Assembly: GCA_964397655.1 (NCBI GenBank)
Contig: CAYNKA010000003.1
Location: 323,890-387,889, forward strand
Direction: 5' to 3'
DNA: 64,000 nt
From: an uncultured Spirochaetaceae bacterium
GTDB lineage: Bacteria > Spirochaetota > Spirochaetia > DTKZ01
Below are positions 47,746-64,000 of this stretch, piece by piece. Position numbers and translations under genes: made by a program. Below the pieces are notes generated by a model. It ran no database searches. It was not told the origin of the DNA and worked only from the letters and a program-made list of their open reading frames with translations. Within the stretch, counting starts at the first letter, position 1. The number at the start of each line of letters is the position of its first letter.

Positions 47746-47754
47746 GAGGGCAAG

Positions 47755-50700
47755 ATGATCGCTAAAACAGCCGTTTCCCGGCCTACCACCTTCCTCATCG
47801 TATTCGTACTCGTGGTGGGTTTCGGTCTCTATACGGCGTCCGACCTTTCCATCGACCTGTATCCCGACGTGACCCCGCCGGTCCTGCTCGTCTTCACGAA
47901 CTACTCCGGCGTAGGGCCGGAGGAGATAGAAACCACCGTCACGCGCCCCCTCGAGGCGGCACTGAGCAACGTGGCGAACATCGACAAGATAACGTCGGTG
48001 TCGGCGGAGGGCTCCAGCCAGATAACCATACAGTTCGTCTACGGCACGAACATGGACGAGGCGCCCAACGACGTGCGCGACAAGCTCGAATTCGTGAAGG
48101 ACAACCTTCCCGACGACGCGACGACTCCCCAGATCTTCAAATTCGACCCGTCGATGATCCCCATCCTCATGCTCGCCGTGAAGGGAAACCGCAGTCCGGA
48201 GGAGCTCAAGAAGATCGCCGAGGACACGATCCAGCCCAGGATCGAACAGGTGGAGGGAGTCTCGCTCACCTCCGTGAGCGGGGGCCGCGAGAGGGCCATC
48301 ATGGTGGAGATCCCCCAGAACCGGCTCGAGGCCTACAACCTCACCCTCACGCAGATTTCCCAGAGCCTGAAGGGTCAGAACATCCAAATAAGCGCAGGAT
48401 CCATAACGGAGGGAAGCAAGAACTACCTCATCCGGACCTCGGGCGAGTACAAGACCATCGACGAGATCAAGAACACGGTCATCGCCTACAAGGGTTCGCA
48501 GTTCACGGCGCGGGAGGCCGGGGTCAAGAACAGCCAGGTCGTCAGGCTCCGCGACATCGCCAACGTGTACGACGGCTTCAAGAAGGAAACGAACAACGTC
48601 TTCATCAACGGCCAGCCCGGCGTGTACATCACCGTCCAGAAGCAGAGCGGAACGAACTCGGTGAAGACCGCGGACAACGTCATGGCGAGGCTCAAGAAGA
48701 TCAACCAGGAGATCCCTCGGGGGATCAGCGTGGAAGTGCTGCACGACACCACGAAGATCATCCGCAACTCCCTCGCCGAGGTCTCGTCGACCGCGACCTC
48801 CGGGGCCTTTCTCGCGGTCGTCATCCTCTTCGTGTTCCTCAGGAGCGTCAGGACGACCCTCATCATCGGCATCTCCATCCCGGTCTCGATCGTCATAACC
48901 TTCATGCTCATGTACTTCACGGGCCTCACGCTCAACATGATGACCCTCACGGGACTCGCCCTCGGGGTCGGCATGCTCGTGGACAACTCCATCGTCATCC
49001 TCGAAAACATCTACCGCTACCGCGAGAAGGGGACCAAGCTCACCGCCGCCTCCATTCTGGGCACCCAGGAAATGATCACCGCGATCACGGCCTCCACGCT
49101 CACCACCATCGTCGTCTTCGCGCCCGTGGTCATCTTCCGCACCGAGCTCGGCATGATGGGCGAGATGCTCGCGAGCCTCTCCTTCACGGTGGTAATCTCC
49201 CTCACCGCGAGCCTTTTCGTCGCGATCTTCCTGGTGCCCGTTCTCACGAGCAAGTACCTCCCGATCTTCTCGCGGAAGGAGGAGCCGCTCACCGGCTTCA
49301 GGAAGCGGATCGACGACGCCATGGGGAAATTCTTCGAACGCATGGACGAGGCCTACAAGAATTCGCTCCGCTTCGTCCTTAAGCACCGCGTCTCCACGAT
49401 CCTGGGAATAATCGTCATTTTCGCCGGAAGCTTCCTGCTCGTACCCCTGACGGGCTTCGAGTTCATGCCGACGATGCAGCAGGACTCGGTCTCCGTGAAC
49501 GTCGAGCTCCCCATCGGGACCAAGCTCGAGATCACCCAGTCGGTGCTCAAGCAGCTCGAGCTCATCGTCCAGCAGGAGGTCAAGGGCTACCAGAACATAG
49601 CGATCTCCGCAGGATCGAGGTCCTTCTTCGGCTTCCTGGGAGCGACGCAATCGCACAAGGGCACCATCTCGATCACGCTCCCGCCCTTCAAGGACAGGAT
49701 CGACGACTCCCATACCGTGGAGCAGAAGCTCAGGAGCCATTTCAACGATTTTCCGTCGGCGGTCTTCTCGTTCCGGCAGAACCGCGGGTTCGGCGGCAAC
49801 GCGAATCCCATCGACATCCTCGTGAAGTCCGACGACCTCGTAAAAAGCAAGGAAGTCGCGCAGAAGATCAGGGACATCATCAAGGCGGAGATCCCCGAGG
49901 CCACGGAGCCGACCATCGACCTCAAGGACGGTCTTCCCCAGGTGGAAATCATCATCGACCGCGACCGCGCCTACGACCTCGGCCTCAACATCGCCACCAT
50001 CGGCCAGGAGATCAGGGCCAACATCGACGGAATCACATCCTCCCAGTACCGGGAAAAAGGGTCCGAATACGACATCGTCGTTATCCTCGATCCCAAGGAC
50101 AGGGACGCGATTCCGGACCTCAACAAGATTTCGGTGACCAACTCCCAGGGCAGGAGAATTTCGCTCGCGAGCTTCGCCAGGCTCGAACGGACCACGGGCC
50201 CGGTGACGATCAACCGCGAGAACCAGATCCGCACCGTGCACGTCACCGCCGGCGTCCTCAAGGGCACCGACCTCAACAAGATCGAGACGGGCATCCGCTC
50301 GCTCATCACCGAACGGATACCGGCCGACGAATCCTACACGATCGAGTTCTCGGGCGACTACGCCGACCTCATGAAATACGGCTACAAGATCGTCATCATC
50401 CTCATCATCTCCGTAGCCCTCGTCTTCGGCGTCATGGCGAGCCAGTTCGAGTCCCTCCTCGACCCGTTCATCATCATGTTCACCATCCCGCTCACCCTCA
50501 TCGGGGTCATCGCCATCCACGTGCTCACGAAGACGAACTTCAGCATGTTCACCGCGGTGGGCATCGTGACGCTCGCGGGCGTGGTCGTGAACAACGGCAT
50601 CGTCCTCGTGGACTACACGAACATGCTCCGCAAGCGGGGCAGGCCCATCATCGACGCCTGCGTCGAGGCCGGCGGCAACAGGCTCAGGCCCATCCTCATG

Positions 50701-50976
50701 ACCACGCTCACCACCGTCCTCGGCCTCCTTCCCGTGGCCTTCGTGCAGAGCGAAGGGGCCGACCTCGTCACCCCCATCAGCAAGACCCTCCTCGGGGGGC
50801 TCTCAGTGAGTTCGTTCTTCACCCTGTTCCTGATCCCGGTGATCTACGCCATCTTCAACGAACAATCCGAGAAATGGAACCGGAAAAAGGAGGAGAGGCG
50901 CCAGCGGATCCGCGAGACCAGGAAGCGGACCATGGCCTCGGAGGCGGCGAAGCCCCAAGGAGGGGCGGAAGCATGA
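47755..50976 (+). CDS. Efflux RND transporter permease (AcrB/HAE1 or CzcA-like)
   Basis: 1073 aa, 12 TM helices, two large periplasmic loops. RBS GGAGGG. Confidence 0.95.
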   Translation: MIAKTAVSRPTTFLIVFVLVVGFGLYTASDLSIDLYPDVTPPVLLVFTNYSGVGPEEIETTVTRPLEAALSNVANIDKITSVSAEGSSQITIQFVYGTNMDEAPNDVRDKLEFVKDNLPDDATTPQIFKFDPSMIPILMLAVKGNRSPEELKKIAEDTIQPRIEQVEGVSLTSVSGGRERAIMVEIPQNRLEAYNLTLTQISQSLKGQNIQISAGSITEGSKNYLIRTSGEYKTIDEIKNTVIAYKGSQFTAREAGVKNSQVVRLRDIANVYDGFKKETNNVFINGQPGVYITVQKQSGTNSVKTADNVMARLKKINQEIPRGISVEVLHDTTKIIRNSLAEVSSTATSGAFLAVVILFVFLRSVRTTLIIGISIPVSIVITFMLMYFTGLTLNMMTLTGLALGVGMLVDNSIVILENIYRYREKGTKLTAASILGTQEMITAITASTLTTIVVFAPVVIFRTELGMMGEMLASLSFTVVISLTASLFVAIFLVPVLTSKYLPIFSRKEEPLTGFRKRIDDAMGKFFERMDEAYKNSLRFVLKHRVSTILGIIVIFAGSFLLVPLTGFEFMPTMQQDSVSVNVELPIGTKLEITQSVLKQLELIVQQEVKGYQNIAISAGSRSFFGFLGATQSHKGTISITLPPFKDRIDDSHTVEQKLRSHFNDFPSAVFSFRQNRGFGGNANPIDILVKSDDLVKSKEVAQKIRDIIKAEIPEATEPTIDLKDGLPQVEIIIDRDRAYDLGLNIATIGQEIRANIDGITSSQYREKGSEYDIVVILDPKDRDAIPDLNKISVTNSQGRRISLASFARLERTTGPVTINRENQIRTVHVTAGVLKGTDLNKIETGIRSLITERIPADESYTIEFSGDYADLMKYGYKIVIILIISVALVFGVMASQFESLLDPFIIMFTIPLTLIGVIAIHVLTKTNFSMFTAVGIVTLAGVVVNNGIVLVDYTNMLRKRGRPIIDACVEAGGNRLRPILMTTLTTVLGLLPVAFVQSEGADLVTPISKTLLGGLSVSSFFTLFLIPVIYAIFNEQSEKWNRKKEERRQRIRETRKRTMASEAAKPQGGAEA

Positions 50977-51263
50977 AGCGCATGGAAATAATCCTGAACC
51001 ATTCCATCGAGGAAGACCTTCTCGAGCTGCTCTCCCGGAAGAAGGTCGCCGCGAAGTACACGCGGTATCCCGAGGTGCACGGCGCCGGGCATTCCGAACC
51101 GAAGCAGGGCAACTCGGTGTGGCCGGAGGAGAACGTCGTGTACGTGATCTACTGCAGGGAGGAGGAGGCCGAGGTCATACGCGAGACGGCACGCGAGCTC
51201 AAAAGCTACTTCCCGAAGGAAGGGGTGAAGGTCTTCGAAACGAATGCCGAACAAACGGTCTGA
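50973..51263 (+). CDS. P-II-like small protein (DUF3240-like) translationally coupled to the RND permease
   Basis: ATGA overlap with the RND gene stop. RBS AAGGAGGGG lies inside the end of the RND gene. 96 aa with a beta-alpha-beta-beta-alpha-beta pattern. Confidence 0.65.
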   Translation: MKRMEIILNHSIEEDLLELLSRKKVAAKYTRYPEVHGAGHSEPKQGNSVWPEENVVYVIYCREEEAEVIRETARELKSYFPKEGVKVFETNAEQTV

Positions 51264-53463
51264 ACTGCTCGCGCCCGCGGGGGGCTTTTCCGCGGGCGTC
51301 TACGCCCTCAGGAACGGCGCGGACGCCGTGTACCTGGGCCTCAAGGCGTTCTCCGCCAGGAAGAGCGCGAGGAATTTCTCGCTCGACGAGCTCTCGGCGA
51401 TAAAAGCCTTCGCCGAGCGGGAGGACAAGAGGGTCTACGCGGCCTTCAACACCCTCGTCAGGGACGGGGAGCTCGCGGAGGCGGCGGAACTCCTCCACGA
51501 ACTCGAAGCCCTCGAAATCGACGGGGTCATCGTCCAGGATCTCGGCATGCTCCGCATGCTGAGGCGGCACTTCCCCGGCCTCGCGGTCCACGCCTCCACG
51601 CAGATGGCGGTTCACAACTCCGAGGGAGTCGCGTTCCTGAAGAGGGAGGGAGTCCGCAGGGTCGTCCTCGCCCGCGAGCTCTCCTGGGAGGAGATCGCGG
51701 CGATCCGCCGCGATCACGAGGACATCGAACTCGAGGTCTTCATCCACGGAGCCCTCTGCTATTCCTTCTCCGGCCTCTGCCTCGCCTCCGGCATGCTCCT
51801 GGGCAGGTCCGGAAACCGCGGAGAATGCGCGCAGATATGCCGGAGCTGGTTCGAGTCGGACGGCGTCGAAAGCCTTCCTCCCCGGGGTTATTATTTCTCA
51901 TGCAACGACCTTTGGGCGGGCGACGAGGTCCTCCGCCTGCAGGAGCTCGGAGTCGATTCCTTCAAGATCGAGGGCCGCATGAAGCCTCCCGAATGGGTGA
52001 GCGCGGTCGTCTCCTATTACAGGACCATCCTCATCGGAGGCAGGGAAAAGACGAAAGCCGAGGCCGCGGAGAAAGCCCGTACGATCTTCTCCCGGCGCAC
52101 GACCAGGGGCTACGGTCCCGCGGCCGGGGGCGAAAACATACTCTCCGCGGACTATCCCGGCCACCGCGGCATACCGGCGGGGACCGTGGAATCGGTGAGG
52201 CGGGAAGGCTTCGTGCTCGTGCTCGAAACCGATCTCTCCCTCCGCGACGGACTCCTCTTCTTCCAGAAGACGGGGAGCGGGGACTTTCCCAGGCCGGTCC
52301 CCTTCGCCGCGACCTTCCCGGCCGAGGAGCGAAGGACCTCCGCCCGGGCCGGGGAACGCGTCCTCGTCGCCTCGGAGCCGCTTCCCGGGATCGGCGACCG
52401 GGTCTACAAGATTTCCTCGCATTCCGCGGCGCTTCCCGAGGTGACGGAAAATTTCCCGAAGAAGACCATCCCCGTCGCGCTCGCGGTAAGGCTCCTTCCC
52501 GGCGAGATCCGCCTGGAATTCATCCCCGGGAAACCGCTCCTTCCCCCCGCGGTCTTCTCGCGGACGATCAGGGTGGAGGGCGCGAAGAAGGCCAGGCCGT
52601 TCCGCGACGTGGTCGAGGAGAGGCTTTCCGCGCCGGGGGACTCCCGCTTCTCGGTAGAATCGTTCGCCTTCGTCAACGAGTCGGGCTTCGGCGACGAGGG
52701 GATCTTCGTCAATCCCTCCGAGCTCAAGGAGACGAGACGCTGGGCCTTCGCCCTCCTCGAGGAGGCGTACGTGTCGGCTCGGACGGCGCGGGCGGCAGCA
52801 GCGACGGGAGGCGCCGGGAATGCGGCAGTGAAGCCGGATCCTCTCCCCGATCCGGGTTTCCGCATACCCGAGCGTGCCCTCGTCGCCGACCGTGAGACGG
52901 GGCTCCCCTTCGTAGCGGACCCCCGGCAGCTCGCGATCGGGCGCCTCCACCGCTCCGAAGACGGCTTCGCGTATCTCGCCCTCGCGCCGGTGCTGTTCCG
53001 CGCCTCGGACTACCTCGCCCGGGTCGAGGCATTCATCCGAAGGTCCCTGCGGGAGGACGGAGGAATCCGCTTCCGGATCGGCCTCGGCAACGTCGGGCAC
53101 CTCGGCTTCGCCTCCTCCTTCGCGGAGGAGGAAAGGGTCGAGTTCTTCGCTGACTGGGGCCTGTACGCGGCGAACCGCGAAACGATCCGCCTGCTTCGCG
53201 AGCGCGTTCCGCGTCTATCGTTCTATTATCCGTGGATTGAAAACCCCGCTCCCGCAGGAGCCGGCCTGCCCGCGGGGCGGTTCGGGAATTTCAAGCCCCC
53301 CCTTTTCCTGAGCAGGGCCTGCGTGTGGAAGCAGGCGGCCGGCGCCTCGTGCGAAGGCTGCGCCGCGGACCGTTCGACCCTCGTCCGGCAGGGGAAGAGG
53401 AGCTTCCGTCTCCGGACGGTGCGCGTCGCGGGCTCCTGCATCTCCCTGCTGTCCGAGGCATGA
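51244..53463 (+). CDS. Peptidase U32 family protein (collagenase-like, PrtC/YegQ-like) with long C-terminal extension
   Basis: U32 core LLAPAGGFSAGVYALRNGADAVYLG and the E..hGALCYSFSG.C catalytic signature. 739 aa. Confidence 0.85.
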   Translation: MPNKRSELLAPAGGFSAGVYALRNGADAVYLGLKAFSARKSARNFSLDELSAIKAFAEREDKRVYAAFNTLVRDGELAEAAELLHELEALEIDGVIVQDLGMLRMLRRHFPGLAVHASTQMAVHNSEGVAFLKREGVRRVVLARELSWEEIAAIRRDHEDIELEVFIHGALCYSFSGLCLASGMLLGRSGNRGECAQICRSWFESDGVESLPPRGYYFSCNDLWAGDEVLRLQELGVDSFKIEGRMKPPEWVSAVVSYYRTILIGGREKTKAEAAEKARTIFSRRTTRGYGPAAGGENILSADYPGHRGIPAGTVESVRREGFVLVLETDLSLRDGLLFFQKTGSGDFPRPVPFAATFPAEERRTSARAGERVLVASEPLPGIGDRVYKISSHSAALPEVTENFPKKTIPVALAVRLLPGEIRLEFIPGKPLLPPAVFSRTIRVEGAKKARPFRDVVEERLSAPGDSRFSVESFAFVNESGFGDEGIFVNPSELKETRRWAFALLEEAYVSARTARAAAATGGAGNAAVKPDPLPDPGFRIPERALVADRETGLPFVADPRQLAIGRLHRSEDGFAYLALAPVLFRASDYLARVEAFIRRSLREDGGIRFRIGLGNVGHLGFASSFAEEERVEFFADWGLYAANRETIRLLRERVPRLSFYYPWIENPAPAGAGLPAGRFGNFKPPLFLSRACVWKQAAGASCEGCAADRSTLVRQGKRSFRLRTVRVAGSCISLLSEA

Positions 53464-53508
53464 GGCGGAGTCCGGGCCCCTCTTCGCCGGCCTCCGGACG
53501 GCCGCCTC
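53462..53508. terminator. Compound hairpin between convergent genes (candidate bidirectional terminator)
   Basis: Outer stem GAGGCGG/CCGCCTC spans both stop codons (U32 TGA and the giant-gene TGA). It encloses an inner TCCGG/CCGGA stem. Confidence 0.35.
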
Positions 53509-56500
53509 ACTTGACCACCATCACCTTTCTGATCTCGTCGATGTCGGGTCCCACGACGCGCACGAAATAGATGCCGCGCGCCACGACCCGGCCTCCCATG
53601 TTTTTCCCGTCCCAGGTATAGGTGTAGCTTCCCTTGCCCTGGTTGCCCCGGTGCAGGACGTAGACCAGGCTGCCGTCGAGCGAGAACACCTGGGCCGAGA
53701 CCATGCCGGACCGCGAGAGCTCGTAGGTGAGGATCGCCTTTTCGGCGTTCTCCGGATTTATCACGTTGTTGAAGATGCTCACGCCGGCCCGCTGGGTCTT
53801 GCCCTTGTCGAGGTTGAAGCTCCAGGGGGCGAGGCTCGTCGGCGTCGAGGCGTCCGTGAGTCTCGCGCAGAACAGGTTCCCGAGCCGGAAGATGAATTCG
53901 ATCTTCTTTCCGGCCTCCATCTCGGAGTCGGTTTCGGGTATGAGGAAATTCCTGAGCGCCCCGGAGACGGAGTACGGGCTCACGCCTCGGGCTCCGGTGT
54001 TCGCGAGGGGGTTGAGCCCCTCGATGCGGATCGGCAACCAGATCGCCGGGAAGTTGACCATCGCGTCGTCGTCGGAGACGTTGAAGTACTTCGAGTCCAC
54101 GTCCGCGTCGAAGAACAGGGTGAGCGGAAGGTTCGTGTAGCCGCTCGCGGCGATCTGCGCCTGGAGGATGACGTCCAGGGGCCTGAGCCGGCCCGTTCCG
54201 TCGAAGGTCCTGAGCGAGGACGAGGTCCCGCCCACGGATTCCGAGTTGATTCCGTCCGAGGCCCAGAGCGGCGAGACCACGCCGAGCCCCACGTCCGTGA
54301 TGCGGTGGACGTCGGTGTCGAGCATGGCGTTCTCGGAGTCGTCGAACACGGTGTTGACCGTCGCCACCTTGAGCGTCGCGCCCACCGCGTCGTTCGCGGT
54401 GATCGCCCGGTTGAGGTTGAACCAGGCGTCCCATACGCTGTTGGAGCTGCTTCCCCGGGTGATCACGTCCATTCCGGTTATGGTGAAGGCGTCGCCCACG
54501 AAGGCGAACTGGGAAGCGCTCACTTGAGCGCTCTTGTCCTTGGAGCCGAAGACCGGTTCGGTGAATTTCACGTACATCCTCGTGTCCCCGACCGATGCGA
54601 GGGTGAGCTGGATTCTGGGAGGCACGCGCTCGATGATAGCGATCGGCGTCGTCGAGGAGGGAAGAAGGTTCCCGGCGAGGTCGGTGATGTACGCCTTCGT
54701 CGCGTCGTAGCTCACGTACATCTCCGTGGTGAGGCCCCAGGGATGGCCCGAATCCGCCAGCGTGAGCGTGAAATAGGGGTCGTCCGGGAGGTTGCCGGTG
54801 AAGCCGGAACTCGCGGGCACGAAGAGGCTGTTGTTGACGTCTGAGATGAGGCCCTGGTTGAAGGTGTTGACGAGGGGGCTCACCCCGACCTGTTCGACGT
54901 AGAAGGCCTCGTATTCGTTGAGCGAATCGAGATCGTAGTTCAGCGTCCTGTCCCTGACGCCGCGCGGGACGTCGGGCTGCCCGATGGACGTGCGATAAAC
55001 GGTTCGTCCCGGCATGTCGGGGTGCGCGAGGGGAACCGTCGTGGTCGTTGGATTCCAGTCCGCGTCCTCCGAGGAGTTGTCCTGGATGAAGAATTCCAGG
55101 CGGTTCACGAGGTTCGTGGTGGTCGTAGCGCGGGAGACTATTTCATAGCTCGTGCCCGGGATGAAGGTCGAGAAGCAGGGCGGGTCCGTGTCCCAATAGG
55201 CGTAGAATCCTCCGCCCAGGGTGTAGGGGACGAAGGTTCCGGCGTAGGGAGCCACGGTGCCGTCCACCGCATTCGGCGTCACGGCCTTGTCGCGAATGAA
55301 GGAATTCGACGCCACCGTGATTCCCGTCGCGGCCGCGGGATTCGGCACGTTCGCATGCCATCCCGGCCACCGCGGGTCCGCGGTGCTGCCGGTGGCGTTC
55401 CAGCCCGAAAGGTAGATCCTGAGCCGGTAGTCGGCCGGCCGGTAGAGGGCGTTCGTCGGATCGATGCCGTCCCTCGCGCCGCGGCTCATGGCGGCCGTGC
55501 CCGTGTAGGTGTAGGAAAAATAGCCCGCGACGGTCGCGGTGCCGGAGGAGGCCGTCATATCGCCCCCCCACTTCGACGCCGCGTCGAAGGCGGCCTGGGC
55601 TCTGACGTTCGAGGCGGGCGAGCCCGCTCCCGCGAGCATCGCGGCGTCCGTTCCGACGTCGACCCGCTCCGAGTAGTAGAGATCGAAGAAGTTGTGCGCG
55701 TCGAAATGCGTGGAGGCCGGCGTCGAGTGCGGCGCCCGTCCGTACTCGATTTTCCAGAGCACGGGGCCTGCACGGTCCACCGTGGCGGTGTAACTCGCGA
55801 AAGTGTTGTAGCCGTAGCTCCTCGCGGGGTTCTTGTGACTGTCGAAGAAGGCGGTCTTCCGGAAGAACAGGTCCGGGAGGTTCGTCTTGTGCGTGCCGGT
55901 CCGGTCGGTGCTCGCAGCCTGCCCTTCGACGGGAGCTGCGCCTCCCGAGCCGACGGCGTCCGTGTTCCAGGTCCCGCCGACGACCGTGGTCCGCACATAG
56001 AAGGACGTGAGGTCGCCCTGCCCGTTCGTCGAGGTCGTACAGAGCGCGTCGGTGAAGGCGTCCGCGAAGACGAGGCCCGCTCCCCCGCCCGGCGTCGTCA
56101 GGGCGCCGGTATTCGTGTAGGACATGGAGGCCGCCGCGAGGGCCGCGTTGATCTCGTCGTTCGAGTTCTCGATCGCCTTGTTGAAGGTGAGTCTCACCAC
56201 GTTGTCCTTCACGGTCTCGACGAGAACGAGCTCCGGTCGGAGAAAGTCCCAGCCCGTGTTGTTTCCGCCGTCCACGACGTTGTTGTTCGTCTCACCGGCC
56301 TTCACGGATGCCGCGGAAACCCAGCCGCCCTCTGCGTCCGTGTCCGCGCCGTCCGCGGAAGAGAGCGTGCACCAGCTCACGGTCATGTTGAGGGCGACCG
56401 CGTACGAGGATGTGCCCCACATGGTCGCCGTGGCGGCTGCGGTGTAGTTGAAGACGGGGTGGTTCATGGAGTTGTCCGGGATCGCAAGGGTCCAGGCAGC

Positions 56501-59500
56501 GCTCCCGGTCATGGAGGTCCCGTTCACGTAGAAGTTGCCGTCGACACTGATCGTCGATCCGTCGAGCGGCGACAAGGCGAAGGCCGGGGCCGGCCCCCCG
56601 AAGGCGACGACGCTGTTCGCGGCGGCCGTCCCGCCCCCCGGAAGGTAGGCGATCCCGGTCTGCGTGTAATAGGCGAAGCGCGTGTCGTCGGAATCCGCGA
56701 TGTTCGTATCTCCGTTCCCGTCCCAGTCGGGATCGTTCGCGTCGTAGGCCGCGCCGAACAAGGCGAAGGCTCCCGTCGTCGAGAGGGTCCTGCCGTTGAG
56801 GTTCGCCGTTCCCCGGTAGCCCAGGAAACGGCCGCACGACAGGTTCGTGACAAGCCTGACCGTGACGCCCGGCGTGTCGAAGTAGAGCGTCGTGCCGGGA
56901 AGACTTATCGTCCCCGCCCCTGCGTCCCAGTCGCCCGACACGGTCGTGCGGAGGCGCAGGCCTCCGGCGGTCGCGGTGTAGGTCTGTCCGTGGCTCGAGA
57001 CGTAGTGCGTCCCGTCGAGCTCGACGTAGCCCGTCGCGGTCACGCCCACGGTCCCCGCGGCGCTCGCGACGCCCGGCGAACCCGTTCCCGAGCCGATGCC
57101 GCCGAGGACGACGTTGTTTCCCGAGATCGTGAGGCTCTCGAGGGCGGTCGCGGTCGATGTTCCGATGATGCCGGACACCGTGACGTCGCCCGTTCCCGCC
57201 GCGAGGCTGAGGAGCTCGGTCCCGGTTCCCGTGCCCGTGATCGTGGAACCGAAGGAAACATTCCCCGTCGCCGCGCCCGTATTCATCGCCACGTCCCCGG
57301 TGAGGGTCACGGGCTGGGCGTTGAACGATATGTTGGCGTTGTTCGTCGCGATGTCCCCTGCGATGCTCACGGCGCCGGCTCCGGTCTTCGTGAAGGCCCC
57401 CGCGAGATTGAAGTCGGCCGCGGTATCGGCGGCTCCGCCGACGTCTTCGACGGTGAGGAGCCCGCCGTTCGACAGCGTCACCCCCCCTCCTGCCGCGGTC
57501 GTCACCGTGTTGTGAAAGGTCATGGCTCCGGTCGTCGTCAGGTCGATCCCGACCCCTGCCAATGCCTGGCTCGTGTTCACCGGCTGGAAGAACTCTATCG
57601 TAGCGACGGTCCCCGTCGTCACGATCCTCGAAGCGAAAACCTCGCCGTTCCAGGTAACCGCGGCCCCGCTCACGACCGTGAGCACGCCGATCCGGTTCGC
57701 CCCGGCCGCCCCGCCGATCCGCCCGTTCGCGGCCCCGCTCGCGGCTCCGAAGCTCACGTTCCCCGTTCCCGCGGTCACCGTGAGATCGTAGGGCGTGCCC
57801 GGACTGTCTATCGTCGCGGCGTTCGCGAACGAGACGTTCCCGATCCCGGCACCGGTACTCAGCGCCACGGCGCCGGTCAGCGTCACGGGGCCCGCGAACG
57901 AGATGTCGTCGGCCGTCGTCGTGATGTCTCCGGCGGTCGACACCGCGCCCGCCCCGGTCTGCTGGAAGGAACCGTTGAGATTGAAATCGGCTGCGGCCAC
58001 GATGGTGAGGAGCCCGCCGTTCGAAAGGGTGACCCTGCCGTCGCCCGTCGCGGTCACCGTGTTGTTGAAAGTCATGGCCCCGGTAGTCGTCAGGTCCAGC
58101 CCGATCGCCGCGGCAGCGTTCGTGTTCACCGGCTGGTTGAAGACGATCGAGCCCACGGTCCCCGTCGTCGCGATCCTCGAAGCGAAAACCTCGCCGTTCC
58201 AGGTAACCGCGGCCCCGCTCACGACCGTAAGCACGCCGATCCGGTTCGCTCCGGCCGCCCCGCCGATCCGTCCGTTCGCGGCTCCGCTCGCGGCTCCGAA
58301 GCTCACGTTCCCCGTGCCCGCGGTCACCGTGAGGTCGTAGGCCCCGCCTATCGTCGCCGCGTTCCCGAACGAGACGTTCCCGGTCCCGGCACCGGTGCTC
58401 AGCGCCACGGCGCCGGTCAGCGTCACGGGGCCCGCGAACGAGATGTTGCCGGCCGTCGTCGTGACGTCGCCGGCGGTCGACACCGCTCCCGCCCCGTCCT
58501 GCGTGAAGGCCCCGCCGAGGGCGAAATCGGCTGCGGCCGCGATCGTGAGCAGGCCCGTGTTCGTTACGGTCACGGTCCCCGAACTCGCGGTGGACACGGC
58601 GCCGTTGAAGGTGACCGCGGCGCCGTTCAGGTCGAGACCGCTCCCGCCCGTCATGACGAAACCGGCCTGGAAGATGTAGTCCGTTCCCGTCATGTCGTTG
58701 AGCGCTGCCCCGTTCGTGTCCACGGCCTGGTTGAAGGCGGTCGTCCCGGTTCCCGCGATCTGCCGGATCCTCGCCGCGAACACCTCGCCGTTGAAGGTGA
58801 CGTTCGCCGCGCTGTTGATCCTGAGGACGCCGATCCGATTCGCCCCTGCCGCCCCGCCGATCCTTCCGTTCGCCGCTCCGCTCGCGGCTCCGAAGCTCAC
58901 GTTCCCCGTGCCCGCGGTCACCGTGAGGTCGTAGGCCGTGCCCGGACTGTCTATAGTCGCGGCGTTCGCAAAGGTGATGTTCCCTCCGACCCCCGCGGTC
59001 GTGGAAAGCGCGACCGCTCCCGTCAGGGTCACGGCCCGGTAGAAATCGACGTTCCCCGCGTTCGTCGTCACATCGCCCGCGGTGGAGAGCGCGCCCGAGA
59101 GCGTCGCGCCGAAGGCGACCGTCCCCGCCCCGGTTGCCGTGATGTCGCCTGCCGGGGCGATCGTCGTCGTTCCCACGGAGTCGATCGTCACCGCTCCGGT
59201 CGAAACGTTGATCTGGGCGGATAGGTCGACCGTCGCTCCGGCGCCCGTCGCGTCGATATTCACCGCGCCGCTCCCGGAACTCAAAGCCGCAGCGATCGTG
59301 ACGTTCCCCGTGTGATTGATCACGATGTCGTTGTTCGTCGTCGTGATCGTGGCCCCGGTGTTGTCGAAGGTCGTTCCCGCGCTCGAGAAGCCCGAGGGCG
59401 TCGTCACGGTCCCGTTCAGGTCCACGGCCCCGCCGTTCGTGATGGAGAGACTCGCGGCGCTGAACGTGCTCGTCACCGTGACGCCGCCCGAGGCGTCGCT

Positions 59501-62500
59501 CACCGTGACCGTCCCGAGCTGAGTCGCGCCGACCCCTCCCGTGAAGCCGAGACTTCCGGTGCCCGCGTTCAGCGTCAGGGTCTGTCCTCCGGCGGTCGTT
59601 CCCGTGAGCGTCGAGGAGAACGAGATGTTCCCCGCTCCGGCCCCGGTGTCCAGGGCGACGTTCCCCGTGAGCGTCACCGCCCCGTCGAAGCGTATGCCGT
59701 CGTTCGTCGTCGTGATGTCTCCGGCGATGCTCACCGCGCCGGCGCCGTTCTGCAGGAAAGCCCCGTTGAGGCTGAAATCCACGTTCCCCGTATCCGCCGC
59801 GCTCGTCGTGTCCACGATGGTGAGGAGCCCGCCGTTCGAAAGGGTGACCCTGCCGTCGCCCGTCGCGGTCACCGTGTTGTTGAAAGTCATGGCCCCGGTA
59901 GTCGTCAGGTCCAGCCCGATCGCCGCGGCAGCGTTCGTGTTCACCGGCTGGTTGAAGACGATCGAGCCCACGGTCCCCGTCGTCGCGATCCTCGAAGCGA
60001 AAACCTCGCCGTTCCAGGTAACCGCGGCCCCGCTCACGACCGTAAGCACGCCGATCCGGTTCGCTCCGGCCGCCCCGCCGATCCGTCCGTTCGCGGCTCC
60101 GCTCGCGGCTCCGAAGCTCACGTTCCCCGTGCCCGCGGTCACCGTGAGGTCGTAGGCCCCGCCTATCGTCGCCGCGTTCCCGAACGAGACGTTCCCGGTC
60201 CCGGCACCGGTGCTCAGCGCCACGGCGCCGGTCAGCGTCACGGGGCCCGCGAACGAGATGTTGCCGGCCGTCGTCGTGACGTCCCCTGCCGTCGACACCG
60301 CGCCCGCCCCGTCCTGCGTGAAGGCCCCGCTGAGGTTGAAATCCGCCGCGGCGGCCATCGTGAGCAGGCCCGAATTCGTGATCGTCGCCGTACCGGTCCC
60401 GGTGGCGGTCACCGCGACGTCGAAGGTGAAGGCGTTGCCGTTCAGGTCGAGGCCGGCTCCGTTCGTGTTCACCGCCGCGCCGAAGTGCGTGGTCCCGCTC
60501 CCCGCGGTCTGCGACACCGAGGCCGCGTACAGCGTCGAACTCACCGTCACGTCGTTCGCGTTCGTGATCGAGAGGGCGTTGAGCCGGTTCGTTCCCGTGT
60601 TACCCACGGCCCCCGTGAAGGTGATGTTCCCCGCGGCTCCCCCGCTCACCGTGAGGGAGGAGTTTCCTGAGGTTTCGGAATGGACCGTGCTCTGGAACTG
60701 GACGATCCCGCCTCCCGTCGCCGTGACCGAGGTCGCGGTCGCCTGGAGGATCACGGGATCGGAGAAGGTGATGGTGCCGGCCGCTCCGCTCGAGGTCACG
60801 GTCGGCGTCGCGGCCGAGTTGAAGTAGATGTTCCCGCTCGTCGGATTGAGCGTGATCGTTCCCGTGGAGGTCGCGAGCGAACCGTTGATCCGCAGGTCGG
60901 CGGCGGGCGTGAGGTTGATGTAGCCCGTGCCGCCCGAGGCGTTCACCGCGGCCGCCACGGTGAGGTCTCCCGCATTCGTCGTCGCGTCGAAGGTTCCCGT
61001 TACCGTGCATGCGTTCAGGGTATAGCCGTCGGCGTCGTTCAGGGAGACGGCGCCGGCGTTCGTTATCGCGACGGTCGCGAAACCGTTGTCCGTCCTGTTC
61101 AGCGTGATCGAGTTCGTCCCCGCGGCGAGCGTCGTGAGACCCGTCACCGCGACCGCCCCGCTCTGCGTCACGTTTCCCGCGCTCGTGAGCGTGAAACTCG
61201 CGGCGCTCACCGCCGCGAGGAGGGAACCCGAGTCCTCGGTGATCGTCACCGCCCCGCCGGTCAGATCGAGGCTCCCGAAGTTCGTCGTGTCGCCGGCTTG
61301 GTCGCCCAAGGTTATGAGGTTCGCGCCTGCGTTCAGGGTGGCGAGGCCCGTAACCGCGATCGTCGTCGCCGCGGCGTCGGTGATGGTCCCGGCGCTCGTC
61401 AGGGTGAAGAAGCCCGAGGCGTTCACCCCGGTGAGGACCGTTGCCGAGTCCTCGGTCACGGTGACGTTCGTTCCGGAAAGGTTGAGGCTCCCGAAGTTCG
61501 TGGTATCGGTTCCGAAATCGCCGAGTACGATCGTCGTCCCGGCGGAGAAGGTCGCGAGGCCCGTCACGGCGATCGTCGTTCCGTTCGCGTCAGCGATGGA
61601 CCCCGAGCTCGTCAAGGAACTGTTCGTGTTGGCATAGAGATAGGTGATCGTCATGTCCGAGTCCTCGGTGACGGTCACCGTGTTCCCGGTCAGACTCAGG
61701 CTCCCGAAATTCGTCGTGTCGTCGTTGCCGATCGTTATGTCGTAATACGTCCCGCCGTTGTGGGCGTCCAGGGTGGCGAGTCCCCCGACGCTGATCGTCG
61801 TGGTCGCCGCGTCCGTGATGGTCCCTCCCGTCGCGGTGACCGAGAGGTTCGCCGCCGTGTTCACGTTTCCGAGGACGATCGCGTTCACGTCCACGAGGGT
61901 TACGTTGTTCGCGTTCGTGACGACCACGGTGCCGAAGTCGTTCGTCGGGGTGTCGAGGGTGATGTCGTAGTAGGTCGGTCCCGCGACCATCGCCGAGAGC
62001 GTCGTCGTCCCGCTCACGACGAGGGGCTGGGCGTTGTCCGTGATCGTCCCCCCGGCGCTGAGCGTGAGGTTCGTCGCGGTCACGCCGTTCGTGGTCGATA
62101 CCGTGTCGACGACGAGGCCGTCGACGTCCGTGAAGGACACCGTGGCCCCGGTTGCTCCGACCGCGAAGGTGTCCGCGTCGTTCCCGGTCTGCGTGAGGGT
62201 GAAGGTGCCCGCCCCGGTGAGGAGGAGGCCGCCCGTCACGACCGTTCCCCCGGTCTGGTTGACGCCGGTCCCTGTCCCGTTCAGGATCAGGGTCCCGCCG
62301 CCAGTGGCGAGGTTCGAGGCGAGGGTGAGCGAGGGCCCGTTCAGGCTGAGGACCGTGGCCGCGCCGTTCGTGGTGATGTTTCCGTTCACGGTCATCGCCG
62401 CGCCGAGCGTCGTGATCGTGACGTTGCTCGCCGTCGTTCCGGCGGTGATGGGCCCGGTCACGGTGAGGCCGCCGGCCGAGTCGTAGAGCGTGAAGGCTCC

Positions 62501-64000
62501 GCCGCGGGTGACGCTGCCCACGGTGCCTATGGTGTTCCCGACGTTGCCGAGATTCAAGGTCCCGGCCGCGGCGGCCTGGACTGCCGTGACCGTGCCCACG
62601 TTCATGGAGGCGTTCTGGCTGACCGCGCCGGTGATGTCCGCCGGAGCGGTCTGGCCGATCGCCAGCGTTCCGTTCGGCGCCGTGACCGTGCAGAGGCCGA
62701 CCGTGGTCGCGTTCCTGATCACGACCGCCGTGGCCGAGGCGCTCGTGGTGGATAGGGTGCCGGTGCTCAAGGCGACGGCCCCGTCGCCTCCGTCGATGAG
62801 GATCGTGCCCGACCCCGCTCCGATCGTTATCCCGGCGGCGAGGGAGACCGAGGTCCCCGCGTTGTTCGTCCCGTTCACCGTTATGGCGCCCGAGGTCGTC
62901 GTGAGCCCCGCGTTCACCGTGACGGCCGCGGTCCCGTTCGCGGTCAAGGTCACGTTCCCCGAGCCGTTTGCGGTCACGGCGTTGGAGATCGTGATGCCGC
63001 CCGTCGAAGAGACGACGGATACGGCGTAGTTTCCGACGGTTGTCGAGATCGTTCCGCCCGTCGTGACCGCTCCGCCGGCCGTGATGTCGATGAGGCCGCC
63101 CGAGGAGGTGACGCTTCCGCCCGTTCCCAGGGCGATTCCCGTGGCCTCGTTTATGTAGACAGCTCCAGCCGCGGTCAGCCTCAGGGTTCCCACGTTCGTG
63201 TCGAGGCAGGCCGTCCCGGTGCCGGTCCCGACGCCGCCCGCTGTATTTATGACGAGGACGCTCGTCGAGTTCGTCGCCCCGATCCGCGAGGGGTCCGCCG
63301 CCTCGACGATGCTTCCCGCGGTCGTGGTGAGGTTTATCTGGGCATTGCCCGTGGACTCGACCACATCCAGCGTCATGGTACCCGCGGACTGCAGGGTGAT
63401 CGCCCCGTTCCCGGTCTGAATCAGCGAATCCGAGTCCATCGTGAGTACATTCGTCGCCGTGAGACCGATCGTCCCCGCGCCGGTCGTTACGATATTGCCG
63501 TAGACCAGCATCGCGTTCGCGCCGGTCGTGTCGATCGTGATGTTTCCGGTACCGGACTGGATCGTGACGCCGTTCGCGAGAGTGAAGCCCGCACCGGAGT
63601 TGATGTCCACGACGCCGGTCCCGGCGGCCGAAACTCCGCCGTTAAGGACGATATTGCCGCTCGTGGAGGTGACGGTGAGCGCGGAGTTCCCCGTGGTCGC
63701 GAGGGAGGTGTCGACGGTGATCGCCGCCGCCGTGCCGCCGAGAATGGCGAGCGGGTCCGTGAAGGTCGCGGAGGTGACGTTGACGGCGCCGGAATTTGCT
63801 CGACCGATCGTGATCGACGAGAAGCCGTCCACGAGGTAGCCGATCTCGGTCGCGTCGAGATTGAACGTGCCGGTCGAGCCGTTTCCGATCCCGACGGTCG
63901 TGGCGGCCGAGGAAGGCTGGAGCGTCAGGGCGCCCCCCGTGCTCGACACATTCCCCCCGAGGCTGATGACGTTCGAGGTCAGGGTGATGAAACCCGATCC
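53507..64000 (-). CDS. Giant repeat-rich surface protein (more than 3480 aa in window, 5' end beyond window) with T9SS/FlgD-Ig-like C-terminal domain
   Basis: Open reading frame runs to the window edge. It is dominated by G/T/A/S/N/V-rich beta-helix/autotransporter-like repeats (GNITIDT..., TVTAGTGNVSFGAASGAANGRIGGAAG...). The C-terminal about 90 aa (...LTYELSRSGMVSAQVFSLDGSLVYVLHRG...YTWDGKNMGGRVVARGIYFVRVV...KVMVVK) resemble a Por-secretion-tail / FlgD-Ig sorting domain. Confidence 0.85.
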   Translation of the reverse strand, partial: GSGFITLTSNVISLGGNVSSTGGALTLQPSSAATTVGIGNGSTGTFNLDATEIGYLVDGFSSITIGRANSGAVNVTSATFTDPLAILGGTAAAITVDTSLATTGNSALTVTSTSGNIVLNGGVSAAGTGVVDINSGAGFTLANGVTIQSGTGNITIDTTGANAMLVYGNIVTTGAGTIGLTATNVLTMDSDSLIQTGNGAITLQSAGTMTLDVVESTGNAQINLTTTAGSIVEAADPSRIGATNSTSVLVINTAGGVGTGTGTACLDTNVGTLRLTAAGAVYINEATGIALGTGGSVTSSGGLIDITAGGAVTTGGTISTTVGNYAVSVVSSTGGITISNAVTANGSGNVTLTANGTAAVTVNAGLTTTSGAITVNGTNNAGTSVSLAAGITIGAGSGTILIDGGDGAVALSTGTLSTTSASATAVVIRNATTVGLCTVTAPNGTLAIGQTAPADITGAVSQNASMNVGTVTAVQAAAAGTLNLGNVGNTIGTVGSVTRGGAFTLYDSAGGLTVTGPITAGTTASNVTITTLGAAMTVNGNITTNGAATVLSLNGPSLTLASNLATGGGTLILNGTGTGVNQTGGTVVTGGLLLTGAGTFTLTQTGNDADTFAVGATGATVSFTDVDGLVVDTVSTTNGVTATNLTLSAGGTITDNAQPLVVSGTTTLSAMVAGPTYYDITLDTPTNDFGTVVVTNANNVTLVDVNAIVLGNVNTAANLSVTATGGTITDAATTTISVGGLATLDAHNGGTYYDITIGNDDTTNFGSLSLTGNTVTVTEDSDMTITYLYANTNSSLTSSGSIADANGTTIAVTGLATFSAGTTIVLGDFGTDTTNFGSLNLSGTNVTVTEDSATVLTGVNASGFFTLTSAGTITDAAATTIAVTGLATLNAGANLITLGDQAGDTTNFGSLDLTGGAVTITEDSGSLLAAVSAASFTLTSAGNVTQSGAVAVTGLTTLAAGTNSITLNRTDNGFATVAITNAGAVSLNDADGYTLNACTVTGTFDATTNAGDLTVAAAVNASGGTGYINLTPAADLRINGSLATSTGTITLNPTSGNIYFNSAATPTVTSSGAAGTITFSDPVILQATATSVTATGGGIVQFQSTVHSETSGNSSLTVSGGAAGNITFTGAVGNTGTNRLNALSITNANDVTVSSTLYAASVSQTAGSGTTHFGAAVNTNGAGLDLNGNAFTFDVAVTATGTGTATITNSGLLTMAAAADFNLSGAFTQDGAGAVSTAGDVTTTAGNISFAGPVTLTGAVALSTGAGTGNVSFGNAATIGGAYDLTVTAGTGNVSFGAASGAANGRIGGAAGANRIGVLTVVSGAAVTWNGEVFASRIATTGTVGSIVFNQPVNTNAAAAIGLDLTTTGAMTFNNTVTATGDGRVTLSNGGLLTIVDTTSAADTGNVDFSLNGAFLQNGAGAVSIAGDITTTNDGIRFDGAVTLTGNVALDTGAGAGNISFSSTLTGTTAGGQTLTLNAGTGSLGFTGGVGATQLGTVTVSDASGGVTVTSTFSAASLSITNGGAVDLNGTVTTPSGFSSAGTTFDNTGATITTTNNDIVINHTGNVTIAAALSSGSGAVNIDATGAGATVDLSAQINVSTGAVTIDSVGTTTIAPAGDITATGAGTVAFGATLSGALSTAGDVTTNAGNVDFYRAVTLTGAVALSTTAGVGGNITFANAATIDSPGTAYDLTVTAGTGNVSFGAASGAANGRIGGAAGANRIGVLRINSAANVTFNGEVFAARIRQIAGTGTTAFNQAVDTNGAALNDMTGTDYIFQAGFVMTGGSGLDLNGAAVTFNGAVSTASSGTVTVTNTGLLTIAAAADFALGGAFTQDGAGAVSTAGDVTTTAGNISFAGPVTLTGAVALSTGAGTGNVSFGNAATIGGAYDLTVTAGTGNVSFGAASGAANGRIGGAAGANRIGVLTVVSGAAVTWNGEVFASRIATTGTVGSIVFNQPVNTNAAAAIGLDLTTTGAMTFNNTVTATGDGRVTLSNGGLLTIVAAADFNLNGSFQQTGAGAVSTAGDITTTADDISFAGPVTLTGAVALSTGAGIGNVSFANAATIDSPGTPYDLTVTAGTGNVSFGAASGAANGRIGGAAGANRIGVLTVVSGAAVTWNGEVFASRIVTTGTVATIEFFQPVNTSQALAGVGIDLTTTGAMTFHNTVTTAAGGGVTLSNGGLLTVEDVGGAADTAADFNLAGAFTKTGAGAVSIAGDIATNNANISFNAQPVTLTGDVAMNTGAATGNVSFGSTITGTGTGTELLSLAAGTGDVTVSGIIGTSTATALESLTISGNNVVLGGIGSGTGSPGVASAAGTVGVTATGYVELDGTHYVSSHGQTYTATAGGLRLRTTVSGDWDAGAGTISLPGTTLYFDTPGVTVRLVTNLSCGRFLGYRGTANLNGRTLSTTGAFALFGAAYDANDPDWDGNGDTNIADSDDTRFAYYTQTGIAYLPGGGTAAANSVVAFGGPAPAFALSPLDGSTISVDGNFYVNGTSMTGSAAWTLAIPDNSMNHPVFNYTAAATATMWGTSSYAVALNMTVSWCTLSSADGADTDAEGGWVSAASVKAGETNNNVVDGGNNTGWDFLRPELVLVETVKDNVVRLTFNKAIENSNDEINAALAAASMSYTNTGALTTPGGGAGLVFADAFTDALCTTSTNGQGDLTSFYVRTTVVGGTWNTDAVGSGGAAPVEGQAASTDRTGTHKTNLPDLFFRKTAFFDSHKNPARSYGYNTFASYTATVDRAGPVLWKIEYGRAPHSTPASTHFDAHNFFDLYYSERVDVGTDAAMLAGAGSPASNVRAQAAFDAASKWGGDMTASSGTATVAGYFSYTYTGTAAMSRGARDGIDPTNALYRPADYRLRIYLSGWNATGSTADPRWPGWHANVPNPAAATGITVASNSFIRDKAVTPNAVDGTVAPYAGTFVPYTLGGGFYAYWDTDPPCFSTFIPGTSYEIVSRATTTTNLVNRLEFFIQDNSSEDADWNPTTTTVPLAHPDMPGRTVYRTSIGQPDVPRGVRDRTLNYDLDSLNEYEAFYVEQVGVSPLVNTFNQGLISDVNNSLFVPASSGFTGNLPDDPYFTLTLADSGHPWGLTTEMYVSYDATKAYITDLAGNLLPSSTTPIAIIERVPPRIQLTLASVGDTRMYVKFTEPVFGSKDKSAQVSASQFAFVGDAFTITGMDVITRGSSSNSVWDAWFNLNRAITANDAVGATLKVATVNTVFDDSENAMLDTDVHRITDVGLGVVSPLWASDGINSESVGGTSSSLRTFDGTGRLRPLDVILQAQIAASGYTNLPLTLFFDADVDSKYFNVSDDDAMVNFPAIWLPIRIEGLNPLANTGARGVSPYSVSGALRNFLIPETDSEMEAGKKIEFIFRLGNLFCARLTDASTPTSLAPWSFNLDKGKTQRAGVSIFNNVINPENAEKAILTYELSRSGMVSAQVFSLDGSLVYVLHRGNQGKGSYTYTWDGKNMGGRVVARGIYFVRVVGPDIDEIRKVMVVK
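58001..58475. repeat. Intragenic direct repeat copy A (about 475 bp, identical to 59816-60290)
   Basis: By eye, base-for-base identical to copy B. It encodes ...DGEGDRPLVDGAGELLELRG...-frame repeats of the giant protein. A further about 90%-identical copy lies at about 57450-57990. Confidence 0.7.
59816..60290. repeat. Intragenic direct repeat copy B (about 475 bp, identical to 58001-58475)
   Basis: Same sequence as copy A, 1815 bp downstream. Identity breaks at both ends. Confidence 0.7.

Follow-up and report, generated by a model that had tools for sequence, protein, structure and literature searches.

A spirochaete family of predicted giant beta-helix proteins with a FlgD-Ig/T9SS-type-A-like C-terminal domain

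Protein export to the outer membrane of spirochaetes is poorly understood, and T9SS-type sorting domains are regarded as a hallmark of Bacteroidota and the FCB group; the T9SS itself has been reported only from Bacteroidetes and the FCB group (PMC5837995; bioRxiv 10.1101/2025.01.03.631275). Its type A cargo in Bacteroidota includes gingipain RgpB, PorZ, PorU and SprB-type giant adhesins. An Ig-like domain is also found in the hook-capping protein FlgD (PF13860; PDB 3osv, 7eh9, 7bhq), where it is inserted in a Tudor-like barrel that accompanies an N-terminal domain, the whole protein measuring ~140-300 aa and being encoded in a flagellar gene context. Beta-helical counterparts include the TpsA proteins (FHA, HMW1, EtpA, HxuA), the autotransporters Hbp, Hap and UpaB, the tapirins and the DUF5649 'stalk' proteins (PMC8286594); DUF5649 is catalogued as a stalk domain of surface fibrillar adhesins and, according to the same survey, did not co-occur with a known adhesive domain (Monzon et al., 2021, PMC8286594). 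For spirochaetes, a literature search found no description of a giant beta-helix family with T9SS or FlgD-Ig C-terminal domains; the family has no name of its own, its members being called 'FlgD immunoglobulin-like domain containing protein' or, for some fragments at NCBI, 'T9SS type A sorting domain-containing protein [Treponema sp.]'.

The protein described here belongs to this spirochaete family and departs from each of the better known systems. Unlike Bacteroidota T9SS cargo, its host phylum is Spirochaetota, T9SS genes were not found nearby, and a family-specific module of ~980 aa precedes the C-terminal domain. With FlgD it shares the Ig-like part (PF13860) only: the N-terminal and Tudor-like parts are absent, the Ig-like domain sits at the end of the protein and not inside another domain, and the protein is ~20 times larger (at least 5,000 aa). 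Compared with the beta-helical adhesins, it has no TPS domain, beta-barrel translocator or known adhesive head, and ends instead in a chain of Ig domains with a C-terminal Ig-like tail. The window, that is, the whole 64,000-nucleotide stretch of DNA analysed, contains the following features:

ends at 53463: convergent U32 peptidase gene, 44 bp from the stop of the giant gene
53507-64000, minus strand: 10.5-kb 3' portion of the giant gene, with 3,496 codons before the stop (its 5' portion falls outside the window)
53507-53509, minus strand: stop codon of the giant gene
53510-53794, minus strand: 95-aa Ig-like domain at the C-terminus, FlgD-Ig / T9SS-type-A class; its last residues are ...VARGIYFVRVVGPDIDEIRKVMVVK
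53795-56737, minus strand: conserved non-repetitive module of ~980 aa, with homologues at E = 0, which defines the spirochaete family
56738-64000, minus strand: Thr/Gly/Ala/Asn-rich predicted beta-helix (solenoid) repeats, residues 1 to ~2,420 of the window part
57998-58582, minus strand: 195-aa segment, downstream copy; shares 96% identity with 59813-60397
59813-60397, minus strand: 195-aa segment, upstream copy; shares 96% identity with 57998-58582
61061-61258, minus strand: best-scoring DUF5649 (PF18886) repeat, residues 914-979 of the window part

The open reading frame is a genuine gene that stays open to the window edge, as the initial annotation had proposed. On the minus strand, 53507-63997 reads through 3,496 sense codons to a single terminal stop (the 3,480 aa of the ORF list being counted from the first GTG), its in-frame GC3 of 0.89 is that of true genes of the window, and a gene is called at the equivalent position of a near-identical JGI contig. 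Both strings quoted in that annotation, ...YTWDGKNMGGRVVARGIYFVRVV... and KVMVVK, are present in the translation. The Gly/Thr/Ala/Asn-rich composition that it described is real: T, G, A, S, V and N prevail over roughly the first 2,400 residues of the window part, and beyond these the composition becomes ordinary. Its three-part layout also holds; the sizes given (3000, 900 and 90 residues) need correcting to ~2,400, ~980 and 95 aa because their sum exceeds the ORF.

The JGI contig carries the whole gene, coding for 5,040 aa (copy P0022). This copy came from a search of protein representatives; a search for homologous proteins returned only proteins of less than 2,000 aa, the full-length protein not among them. 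It starts with a signal peptide of the Sec / signal peptidase I type (MGRAAVIGKSRIFLLAAFLALSFAQA, cut before G), the N-terminal signal sought upstream of the window being read from the near-identical contig and not from window DNA, and it contains no other hydrophobic 19-mer. Among the 56 representatives of more than 2,500 aa in the family, 42 likewise have a signal-peptide-like start, as do most complete genomic ORFs. The repeat region extends ~2,150 residues beyond the window up to the signal peptide, giving ~4,500 residues of predicted beta-helix in the full-length copy. The window variant should measure ~5,645 aa because it adds one extra 605-aa super-repeat to these 5,040 aa.

This super-repeat is marked by the two 195-aa copies, which are spaced 1,815 nt (605 aa) apart, and it is recently duplicated: the JGI contig lacks one 1,815-bp unit of the window, placeable anywhere between 57997-59811 and 58469-60283, and the two sequences differ by this clean indel and only 3 other differences. 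The 605-aa length difference could be an assembly collapse instead of biological variation. Tandem Repeats Finder detected no tandem array in the DNA, the repetition residing at the protein level plus the one 1,815-nt duplication; at that level, self-BLAST of the whole protein gave only the trivial match and the internal repeats were recovered by searching with protein chunks. Structure prediction models the repeat units as a beta-helix, and the Foldseek matches of this model are non-significant (E >= 0.46). The fold neighbours of the protein include HxuA, HMW1, EtpA, FHA, Hbp and Hap. The beta-helix-like repeats of the initial annotation gain support from Pfam, which finds DUF5649 in five stretches of the window part (72.4 bits). 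The protein thus shows the repeated stalk domains (DUF5649, beta-helix models) that enter the definition of fibrillar adhesin-like proteins, and no adhesive Pfam domain was found in it.

Downstream of the repeats, the ~980-aa module matches no Pfam family. It is modelled (pLDDT 87.7, with fold matches) as a beta-helix cap leading into a string of beta-sandwich (Ig-like) domains; Foldseek searches with the whole multi-domain model returned only generic Ig-chain matches (TM < 0.15). Overall, the fold neighbours are all extracellular adhesins, passengers, S-layer proteins or tailspikes.

At the very end of the protein, sequence profiles support a reading of the last ~95 aa as a FlgD-Ig / T9SS-type-A-like domain. 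Taken in isolation, these residues pass the curated cut-off of PF13860 (FlgD_ig), 27 bits, with a score of 35.2 (E = 1.2e-8), and that of TIGR04183 (T9SS type A sorting domain), 23 bits, with a score of 28.6 (E = 1.1e-6), so the resemblance to sorting domains and FlgD-Ig noted at the outset is more than chance. The match to TIGR04183 extends to 71 of 71 family members (E <= 0.01), and the C-terminal domains of the PorU and PorZ models are matched by 70 and 67 of them, respectively. On the other side, the full-length window protein falls below the TIGR04183 cut-off (19.4 bits), the domain scores 14 bits against PF18962 where 27 are needed (12 of 71 members at E < 0.01), and FlgD models outscore TIGR04183 (7e-12 vs 1.6e-8), FlgD being the best match among both profiles and PDB sequences. 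The domain is also the most conserved part of the protein, with a mean column identity of 65% vs 25%, unusual next to T9SS type A cargo, and the invariant motif of the family, VARGxYF.R...E.RK, is present here. A second ORF bearing the domain was found neither in 1.19 Mb of spirochaete flanking DNA nor in the window, even at E <= 10; uniqueness in the flanking DNA is more in keeping with a dedicated partner than with a general sorting signal.

Relatives of the conserved C-terminal module number 480 in a set of species-representative genomes, with E = 0 and 29-53% identity along the conserved C-terminal 1,100-1,200 aa (query residues ~1-1196). Among proteins clustered at 50% identity, 531 clusters have a representative that matches at E <= 1e-30; the proteins measure 2,000-6,600 residues. 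Metagenome contigs, scanned with all 3,496 aa of the fragment, yielded no relative. About 76 of the best 80 of the 480 loci are titled Spirochaetota, the others being for the most part short MAG contigs or records with a missing or wrong label, and four spirochaete MAG loci have the convergent U32-peptidase neighbour seen in the window. Judged by locus titles and synteny, the family thus appears essentially restricted to Spirochaetota, and the host falls outside the Bacteroidota or FCB group to which the initial annotation had pointed. The same order of parts, from signal peptide through beta-helix and module to C-terminal domain, is present in the cultured Alkalispirochaeta alkalica DSM 8900 (locus L024) and in Candidatus Marispirochaeta associata JC231, and the family is also carried by complete spirochaete chromosomes such as OY764868.1, OZ271854.1 and OY776510.1; compared with these relatives, the window copy is among the longest, belongs to an N-terminal class with a W-x-G...W...NW motif, and has the U32 peptidase gene in place of an adjacent convergent lipoprotein gene.

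This predicted lipoprotein gene directly follows the giant gene, in convergent orientation, in 57 of 64 related loci; being absent from both the window and the adjoining DNA of the near-identical contig, it cannot encode an obligatory adjacent partner. Components of the T9SS, whose core comprises PorK/L/M/N, SprA/Sov, PorT, PorU and PorV, were seen neither in the 64-kb window nor in a further ~15 kb of that contig (~79 kb in all), flagellar genes neither in the window nor in the adjoining contig, and a secretion-machinery gene was not seen among the conserved neighbours of 80 related loci, only some of them annotated. MFP/OEP genes nearby belong to a TetR-regulated RND (AcrB) efflux set. In a Treponematales-like subset, a patatin-like phospholipase, a hexapeptide transferase and a NusG-II protein are encoded by conserved upstream genes; none is secretion machinery. 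The window contains no detected tRNA or Rfam family, and the hairpin in the 44-bp convergent gap folds no better than shuffled sequence (z = -1.58), which gives no ground for calling a terminator there.

What, then, is the protein? We think it probable that it is a very long fibre of the spirochaete envelope or surface, exported by Sec, whose tail binds a conserved partner. Sec would carry it over the inner membrane; the conserved module and C-terminal domain, by analogy with T9SS cargo, would form the cell-proximal end and dock on the partner, to cross or attach to the outer membrane or sheath, while the variable N-terminal beta-helix would project as a stalk and serve as an adhesin or coat fibre. 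At ~23 residues and 0.48 nm per rung, such a stalk would be on the order of 100 nm long, and the copy number of the 605-aa unit would alter its length. For most relatives, the convergent downstream lipoprotein is a candidate for this partner; in the lineage of the window its gene is not adjacent. A more specific version of this scheme can be offered tentatively: a spirochaete route, independent of the T9SS or remotely related to it, may recognize the conserved FlgD-Ig/T9SS-like domain and export or anchor a single giant beta-helix fibre per genome, with the convergent lipoprotein (~90% of loci) as its outer-membrane receptor or anchor.

A genuine T9SS cargo, recognized by SprA/Sov and PorV, cleaved by PorU and attached to the surface, on anionic LPS, would make the host an FCB-type bacterium or a spirochaete with an unrecognized T9SS. 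The TIGR04183 score of the isolated domain and its match in every member, the similarity of most members to the PorU and PorZ C-terminal domains and the NCBI names are all consistent with this, as is the typical cargo layout, an extreme C-terminal domain (...RKVMVVK and stop) with an N-terminal Sec signal peptide (P0022, relatives), and a PorV/PorQ-family barrel has been noted in Brachyspira (bioRxiv 10.1101/2025.01.03.631275). The label is nevertheless unproven, and unlikely on phylogenetic grounds, because the family is spirochaetal, whereas the T9SS has been reported only from Bacteroidetes and the FCB group, and no T9SS gene was seen in ~79 kb around the gene; the weak PF18962 scores, the sub-threshold full-length score, the better FlgD scores, the single domain-bearing ORF and the conserved neighbours, partly annotated, in which no secretion gene was seen also speak against it. 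If the FlgD resemblance is taken literally, the Ig-like domain could be a binding module and not an export signal, in a structural envelope protein of the periplasm tied, for example, to the flagella or to the inner face of the outer sheath. Spirochaete flagella are periplasmic, the sequence supports Sec export only, and an outer-membrane translocator was not found nearby; the periplasm could be the final location. We nonetheless find it doubtful: the FlgD N-terminal domain and flagellar neighbours are lacking, an unbranched beta-helix of ~100 nm would sit awkwardly in a thin periplasm, and both the cataloguing of DUF5649 stalks as parts of surface fibrillar adhesins (PMC8286594) and the uniformly extracellular fold neighbours point elsewhere.

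The beta-helix next to the module, of pectate-lyase fold, might also be a lyase, depolymerase or carbohydrate-binding unit carried on a stalk, making the protein a giant polysaccharide-active enzyme or binding protein. This is quite improbable given that Pfam and NCBIfam find no catalytic family anywhere in the protein, that non-enzymatic adhesins of the same fold match equally well and that catalytic residues were not identified. Secretion by a type V pathway, as an autotransporter or two-partner adhesin, or by a type I pathway, as an RTX-like one, is suggested by size, beta-helix architecture and the fold neighbours from HxuA to Hap. It is hardly credible: the domain scans largely refute it, and these readings are rejected for want of a TPS domain, an autotransporter barrel or RTX repeats, Pfam giving only DUF5649 in the window part and the full-length gene (no PF05860, no PF03797). 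Export genes of the TpsB/Omp85 or ABC/MFP kind do not adjoin the gene, the MFP/OEP genes in its vicinity being those of the efflux set, and the N-terminal signal peptide speaks against type I.

For the window itself, the analysis provides a full-length gene model and a corrected taxonomic inference (spirochaete, not FCB). More broadly, it reveals a large family (at least 531 clusters at 50% identity, 480 genomic loci) in which a sorting-type domain is the best-conserved part; either T9SS-like machinery reaches Spirochaetota or the domain fold serves another targeting mechanism; automatic T9SS type A annotations in Treponema sp. assert a pathway that is unproven. The question is experimentally accessible in cultured hosts such as A. 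alkalica. If a dedicated spirochaete route is true, T9SS type A labels in Spirochaetota would misname a different system, and the 'T9SS sorting domain' fold would be an envelope-targeting module outside the FCB group.

Translation of the minus strand at 53507-63997 gives 3,496 stop-free codons and then a single stop at 53507-53509, and the frame remains open as far as the edge of the window, in agreement with the initial annotation; the 3,480 aa of the ORF listing are counted from the first GTG. The GC3 of this frame is 0.89, as in the other real genes of the window (62-68% GC). Until about residue 2,400 of the window part, the majority of residues are T, G, A, S, V or N, as expected from the low-complexity Gly/Thr/Ala/Asn-rich repeats first described, and composition is ordinary beyond; both C-terminal strings originally quoted are found in the translation. 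The proposed sizes (3000, 900 and 90 aa) add up to more than the ORF: within the window, the repeats come to about 2,400 aa, the non-repetitive module to about 980 aa and the tail to 95 aa. An exact match to the U32 peptidase protein next door occurs in JGI metagenome 3300022666, on contig Ga0248168_1000033 (289,911 bp), where the giant gene is called at 5,040 aa; this protein, P0022, is 100% identical to the window protein over its last 1,196 aa (exhaustive HMMER search). The N-terminal signal peptide that was to be sought upstream is present on this near-identical full-length copy: P0022 begins with MGRAAVIGKSRIFLLAAFLALSFAQA/GWSDDFHWSGGDGSLAWNSGANW, which is a Sec/signal peptidase I-type signal peptide, as its charged n-region, hydrophobic core and AXA site show, and no second hydrophobic segment occurs across the 5,040 aa.

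The window is another contig, apparently of the same population or a sister one, and the two assemblies are very close. Window positions 5968-27338 are identical to the JGI contig, and single-base differences are confined to 46275, 46277 and 57199 (22 kb compared). Within the giant gene there are only three other differences besides a clean 1,815-bp (605-aa) insertion that the window carries in the repeats:

57997-60397, extra 605-aa super-repeat region, absent as an extra unit from Ga0248168_1000033

Two segments of the window part, residues 1201-1395 and 1806-2000, share 96% identity, and 300 nt of their DNA are the same. The extra unit may reflect either copy-number variation of fibre length or assembly collapse in either assembly; if the N-terminal part of the window's protein matches the JGI copy, this variant would be 5,645 aa long.

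Pfam detects DUF5649 repeats alone in the whole window fragment (72.4 bits, 5 stretches) and nothing between repeats and tail. The T9SS/FlgD-Ig pattern first read in the C-terminus holds in part: the isolated last 95 aa pass PF13860 FlgD_ig (35.2 bits, cut-off 27) and TIGR04183 (28.6 bits, cut-off 23), but they miss PF18962 (14 bits, cut-off 27), and the full-length window protein stays under the TIGR04183 cut-off with 19.4 bits. A PDB sequence search with the tail retrieves FlgD alone (3osv, 7eh9, 7bhq; E about 1e-3). The AlphaFold2 model of the last 1,196 aa (59 sequences) is all-beta with a mean pLDDT of 87.7, and as a whole it matches generic Ig-chain proteins alone in Foldseek. The repeat-region model (701 residues; pLDDT 86.8, pTM 0.82) has short strands throughout, and its Foldseek matches are all beta-helix/solenoid proteins (HxuA, RsaA, HMW1, EtpA, EspC, VacA, IcsA), none of them significant (E ≥ 0.46).

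The family is largely spirochaetal. Against a word-indexed database, the C-terminal 1,196 aa find few relatives, the named ones being Spirochaetia and Treponema, while an alignment-based scan of one genome per GTDB species yields 480 encoded relatives. About 76 of the best 80 of these 480 loci bear spirochaete titles (Spirochaetota, Spirochaetales, Spirochaetia, Alkalispirochaeta, Marispirochaeta, Oceanispirochaeta, Sediminispirochaeta, Treponematales), including two cultured hosts, Alkalispirochaeta alkalica DSM 8900 and Candidatus Marispirochaeta associata JC231; the remaining loci are short MAG contigs labelled Clostridiaceae or Bacteroidota, a sulfidic-cave MAG labelled Borreliella and one record whose title names no organism. 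Complete spirochaete chromosomes are also among the carriers (OY764868.1, OZ271854.1, OY776510.1 and OY759746.1). Directly beside the giant gene, 44 bp away, lies:

51244-53463, plus strand, U32 peptidase (collagenase-type, with DUF3656), convergent to the giant gene

This convergent neighbour is common to the window and four spirochaete MAG loci (L002, L014, L047 and L068; 39-47% identity), and L068 also has the tail closest to the window's (71% identity over 274 aa). Because of this synteny and the spirochaetal titles of the best loci, we conclude from comparative evidence that the source organism is a spirochaete, and the early hint of an FCB-type lineage is abandoned. By exhaustive search the family counts 531 cluster representatives (E ≤ 1e-30), the longest having 6,656 aa. 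Complete genomic ORFs span 1,900-4,360 aa, most with a signal peptide at the start, as have 42 of the 56 representatives longer than 2,500 aa. Two N-terminal classes can be told apart, 'Q-S-R-I-P ... NWL ... VVFFEVPD' and 'YTW-G ... W ... NW', the window's protein belonging to the second. In many relatives (e.g. P0072, P0035, P0046, P0093) a conserved G-Q-S-R-I-P stands directly after the signal-peptide core, so that their mature N-terminus may expose a glutamine; this recalls the 'Q-rule' of Bacteroidetes (PMC5837995), whereas the window's protein has A-Q-A/G instead.

Elsewhere in the family another gene takes the convergent position. Of the 64 related loci that extend far enough downstream, 57 have a convergent gene of 380-460 codons 3' of the giant gene's stop; it lies within 500 nt of that stop in 55 of the 60 copies with a measurable position. 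Its product is a predicted lipoprotein because a lipobox cysteine follows the signal sequence; it has no Pfam family apart from a weak similarity to CBM_4_9 in one copy (E = 0.006). Examples from four related loci are:

L008, 13447-14577, minus strand, convergent predicted lipoprotein
L006, 13479-14756, minus strand, convergent predicted lipoprotein
L012, 13617-15011, minus strand, convergent predicted lipoprotein
L024, 11614-12957, minus strand, convergent predicted lipoprotein

Neither the window nor the JGI contig's adjoining DNA has a lipoprotein homologue, and in the window the U32 gene stands in its position, so the lipoprotein partner is a lead for the family and no part of the window's locus. 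The arrangement in L002, L014, L047 and L068 marks a sub-lineage with the U32 gene in the lipoprotein's place.

Elsewhere in the window, on the plus strand, 1830-5009 encodes a 1,059-aa WD40 beta-propeller protein (364.7 bits, 7 stretches), and 15968-17338 a 456-aa Big_2-domain protein with a faint fn3 signal and without the giant protein's C-terminal domain, probably another envelope protein. Adjacent amino-oxidase/phytoene-desaturase-like genes (518 and 491 aa) and a minus-strand lycopene-cyclase-domain gene (233 aa) at 23509-27309 resemble a small cluster of carotenoid type. At 36143-41513 on the plus strand, a hybrid sensor kinase of 1,425 aa (dCache, PAS, HisKA, HATPase, two receiver domains, Hpt) precedes a receiver-HD-domain response regulator. 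The plus-strand genes at 44238-50976, for a TetR-family regulator, an outer-membrane factor, a membrane-fusion protein, an AcrB-type RND pump and a small P-II-like ORF, were rejected as a secretion system for the giant protein: their content is that of a TetR-led RND efflux operon.

Could the giant protein nevertheless be genuine T9SS cargo? Its tail stands at the extreme C-terminus of a protein with a signal peptide; TIGR04183 is matched by 71 of 71 family tails, and the C-terminal domains of the PorU and PorZ models by 70 and 67 of the 71; NCBI titles family fragments 'T9SS type A sorting domain-containing protein [Treponema sp.]'. Yet FlgD models outscore TIGR04183 on the family tails, and most of these miss PF18962. 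The tail is also the best-conserved part of the protein: mean column identity is 65% there and 0.85 in its last 25 residues, but 25% over the 1,000 aa before it, whereas the sequence of T9SS sorting domains is usually poorly conserved. A tail HMM finds no second ORF even at E ≤ 10, neither in the window nor in spirochaete flanking DNA totalling 1.19 Mb; this uniqueness, together with the strong conservation, points to a conserved partner dedicated to binding the tail more than to a promiscuous sorting tag. T9SS genes are absent from the window and from the JGI contig over 10 kb upstream of the giant gene, and across 80 loci, only some of them annotated, the conserved neighbours showed no gene for secretion machinery. 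Judged from these stretches, the host genome probably lacks a T9SS. Finally, the host is spirochaetal, whereas T9SS has been reported from Bacteroidetes and the FCB superphylum only (PMC5837995; bioRxiv 10.1101/2025.01.03.631275), although a PorV/PorQ-family barrel has been noted in Brachyspira (bioRxiv 10.1101/2025.01.03.631275). We thus regard T9SS cargo as unlikely.

The assembled picture is of a Sec signal peptide, about 4,500 aa of beta-helix, a conserved cap and beta-sandwich chain and a conserved terminal Ig-like domain, in a family restricted to spirochaetes. We hypothesize, with moderate confidence, a Sec-exported fibre that docks by its conserved C-terminal end on an envelope partner. 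The protein would leave the cytoplasm via Sec, its conserved end would dock on a conserved envelope partner in order to be translocated or anchored, and the N-terminal helix, the variable part, would project as a fibre. If each rung takes about 23 residues and 0.48 nm, this fibre would measure in the order of 100 nm, and its length may change in 605-aa steps. Adhesion, a coat or polysaccharide binding are candidate functions. Alternatively, the protein might stay in the periplasm as a structural component, which we consider as improbable as T9SS cargo; that it acts enzymatically on polysaccharides seems less likely still, and secretion as a type V or type I adhesin very unlikely indeed.

The family is filed in databases under automatic names, and no paper describing it was found in the literature searched. 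The family stands apart by its host phylum, by a module of about 980 aa specific to it, by the strong conservation of the tail and by the conserved lipoprotein gene nearby. Without demonstrating a new mechanism, these giant beta-helical, presumably envelope proteins with a T9SS/FlgD-type tail pose a testable puzzle of spirochaete envelope biology.
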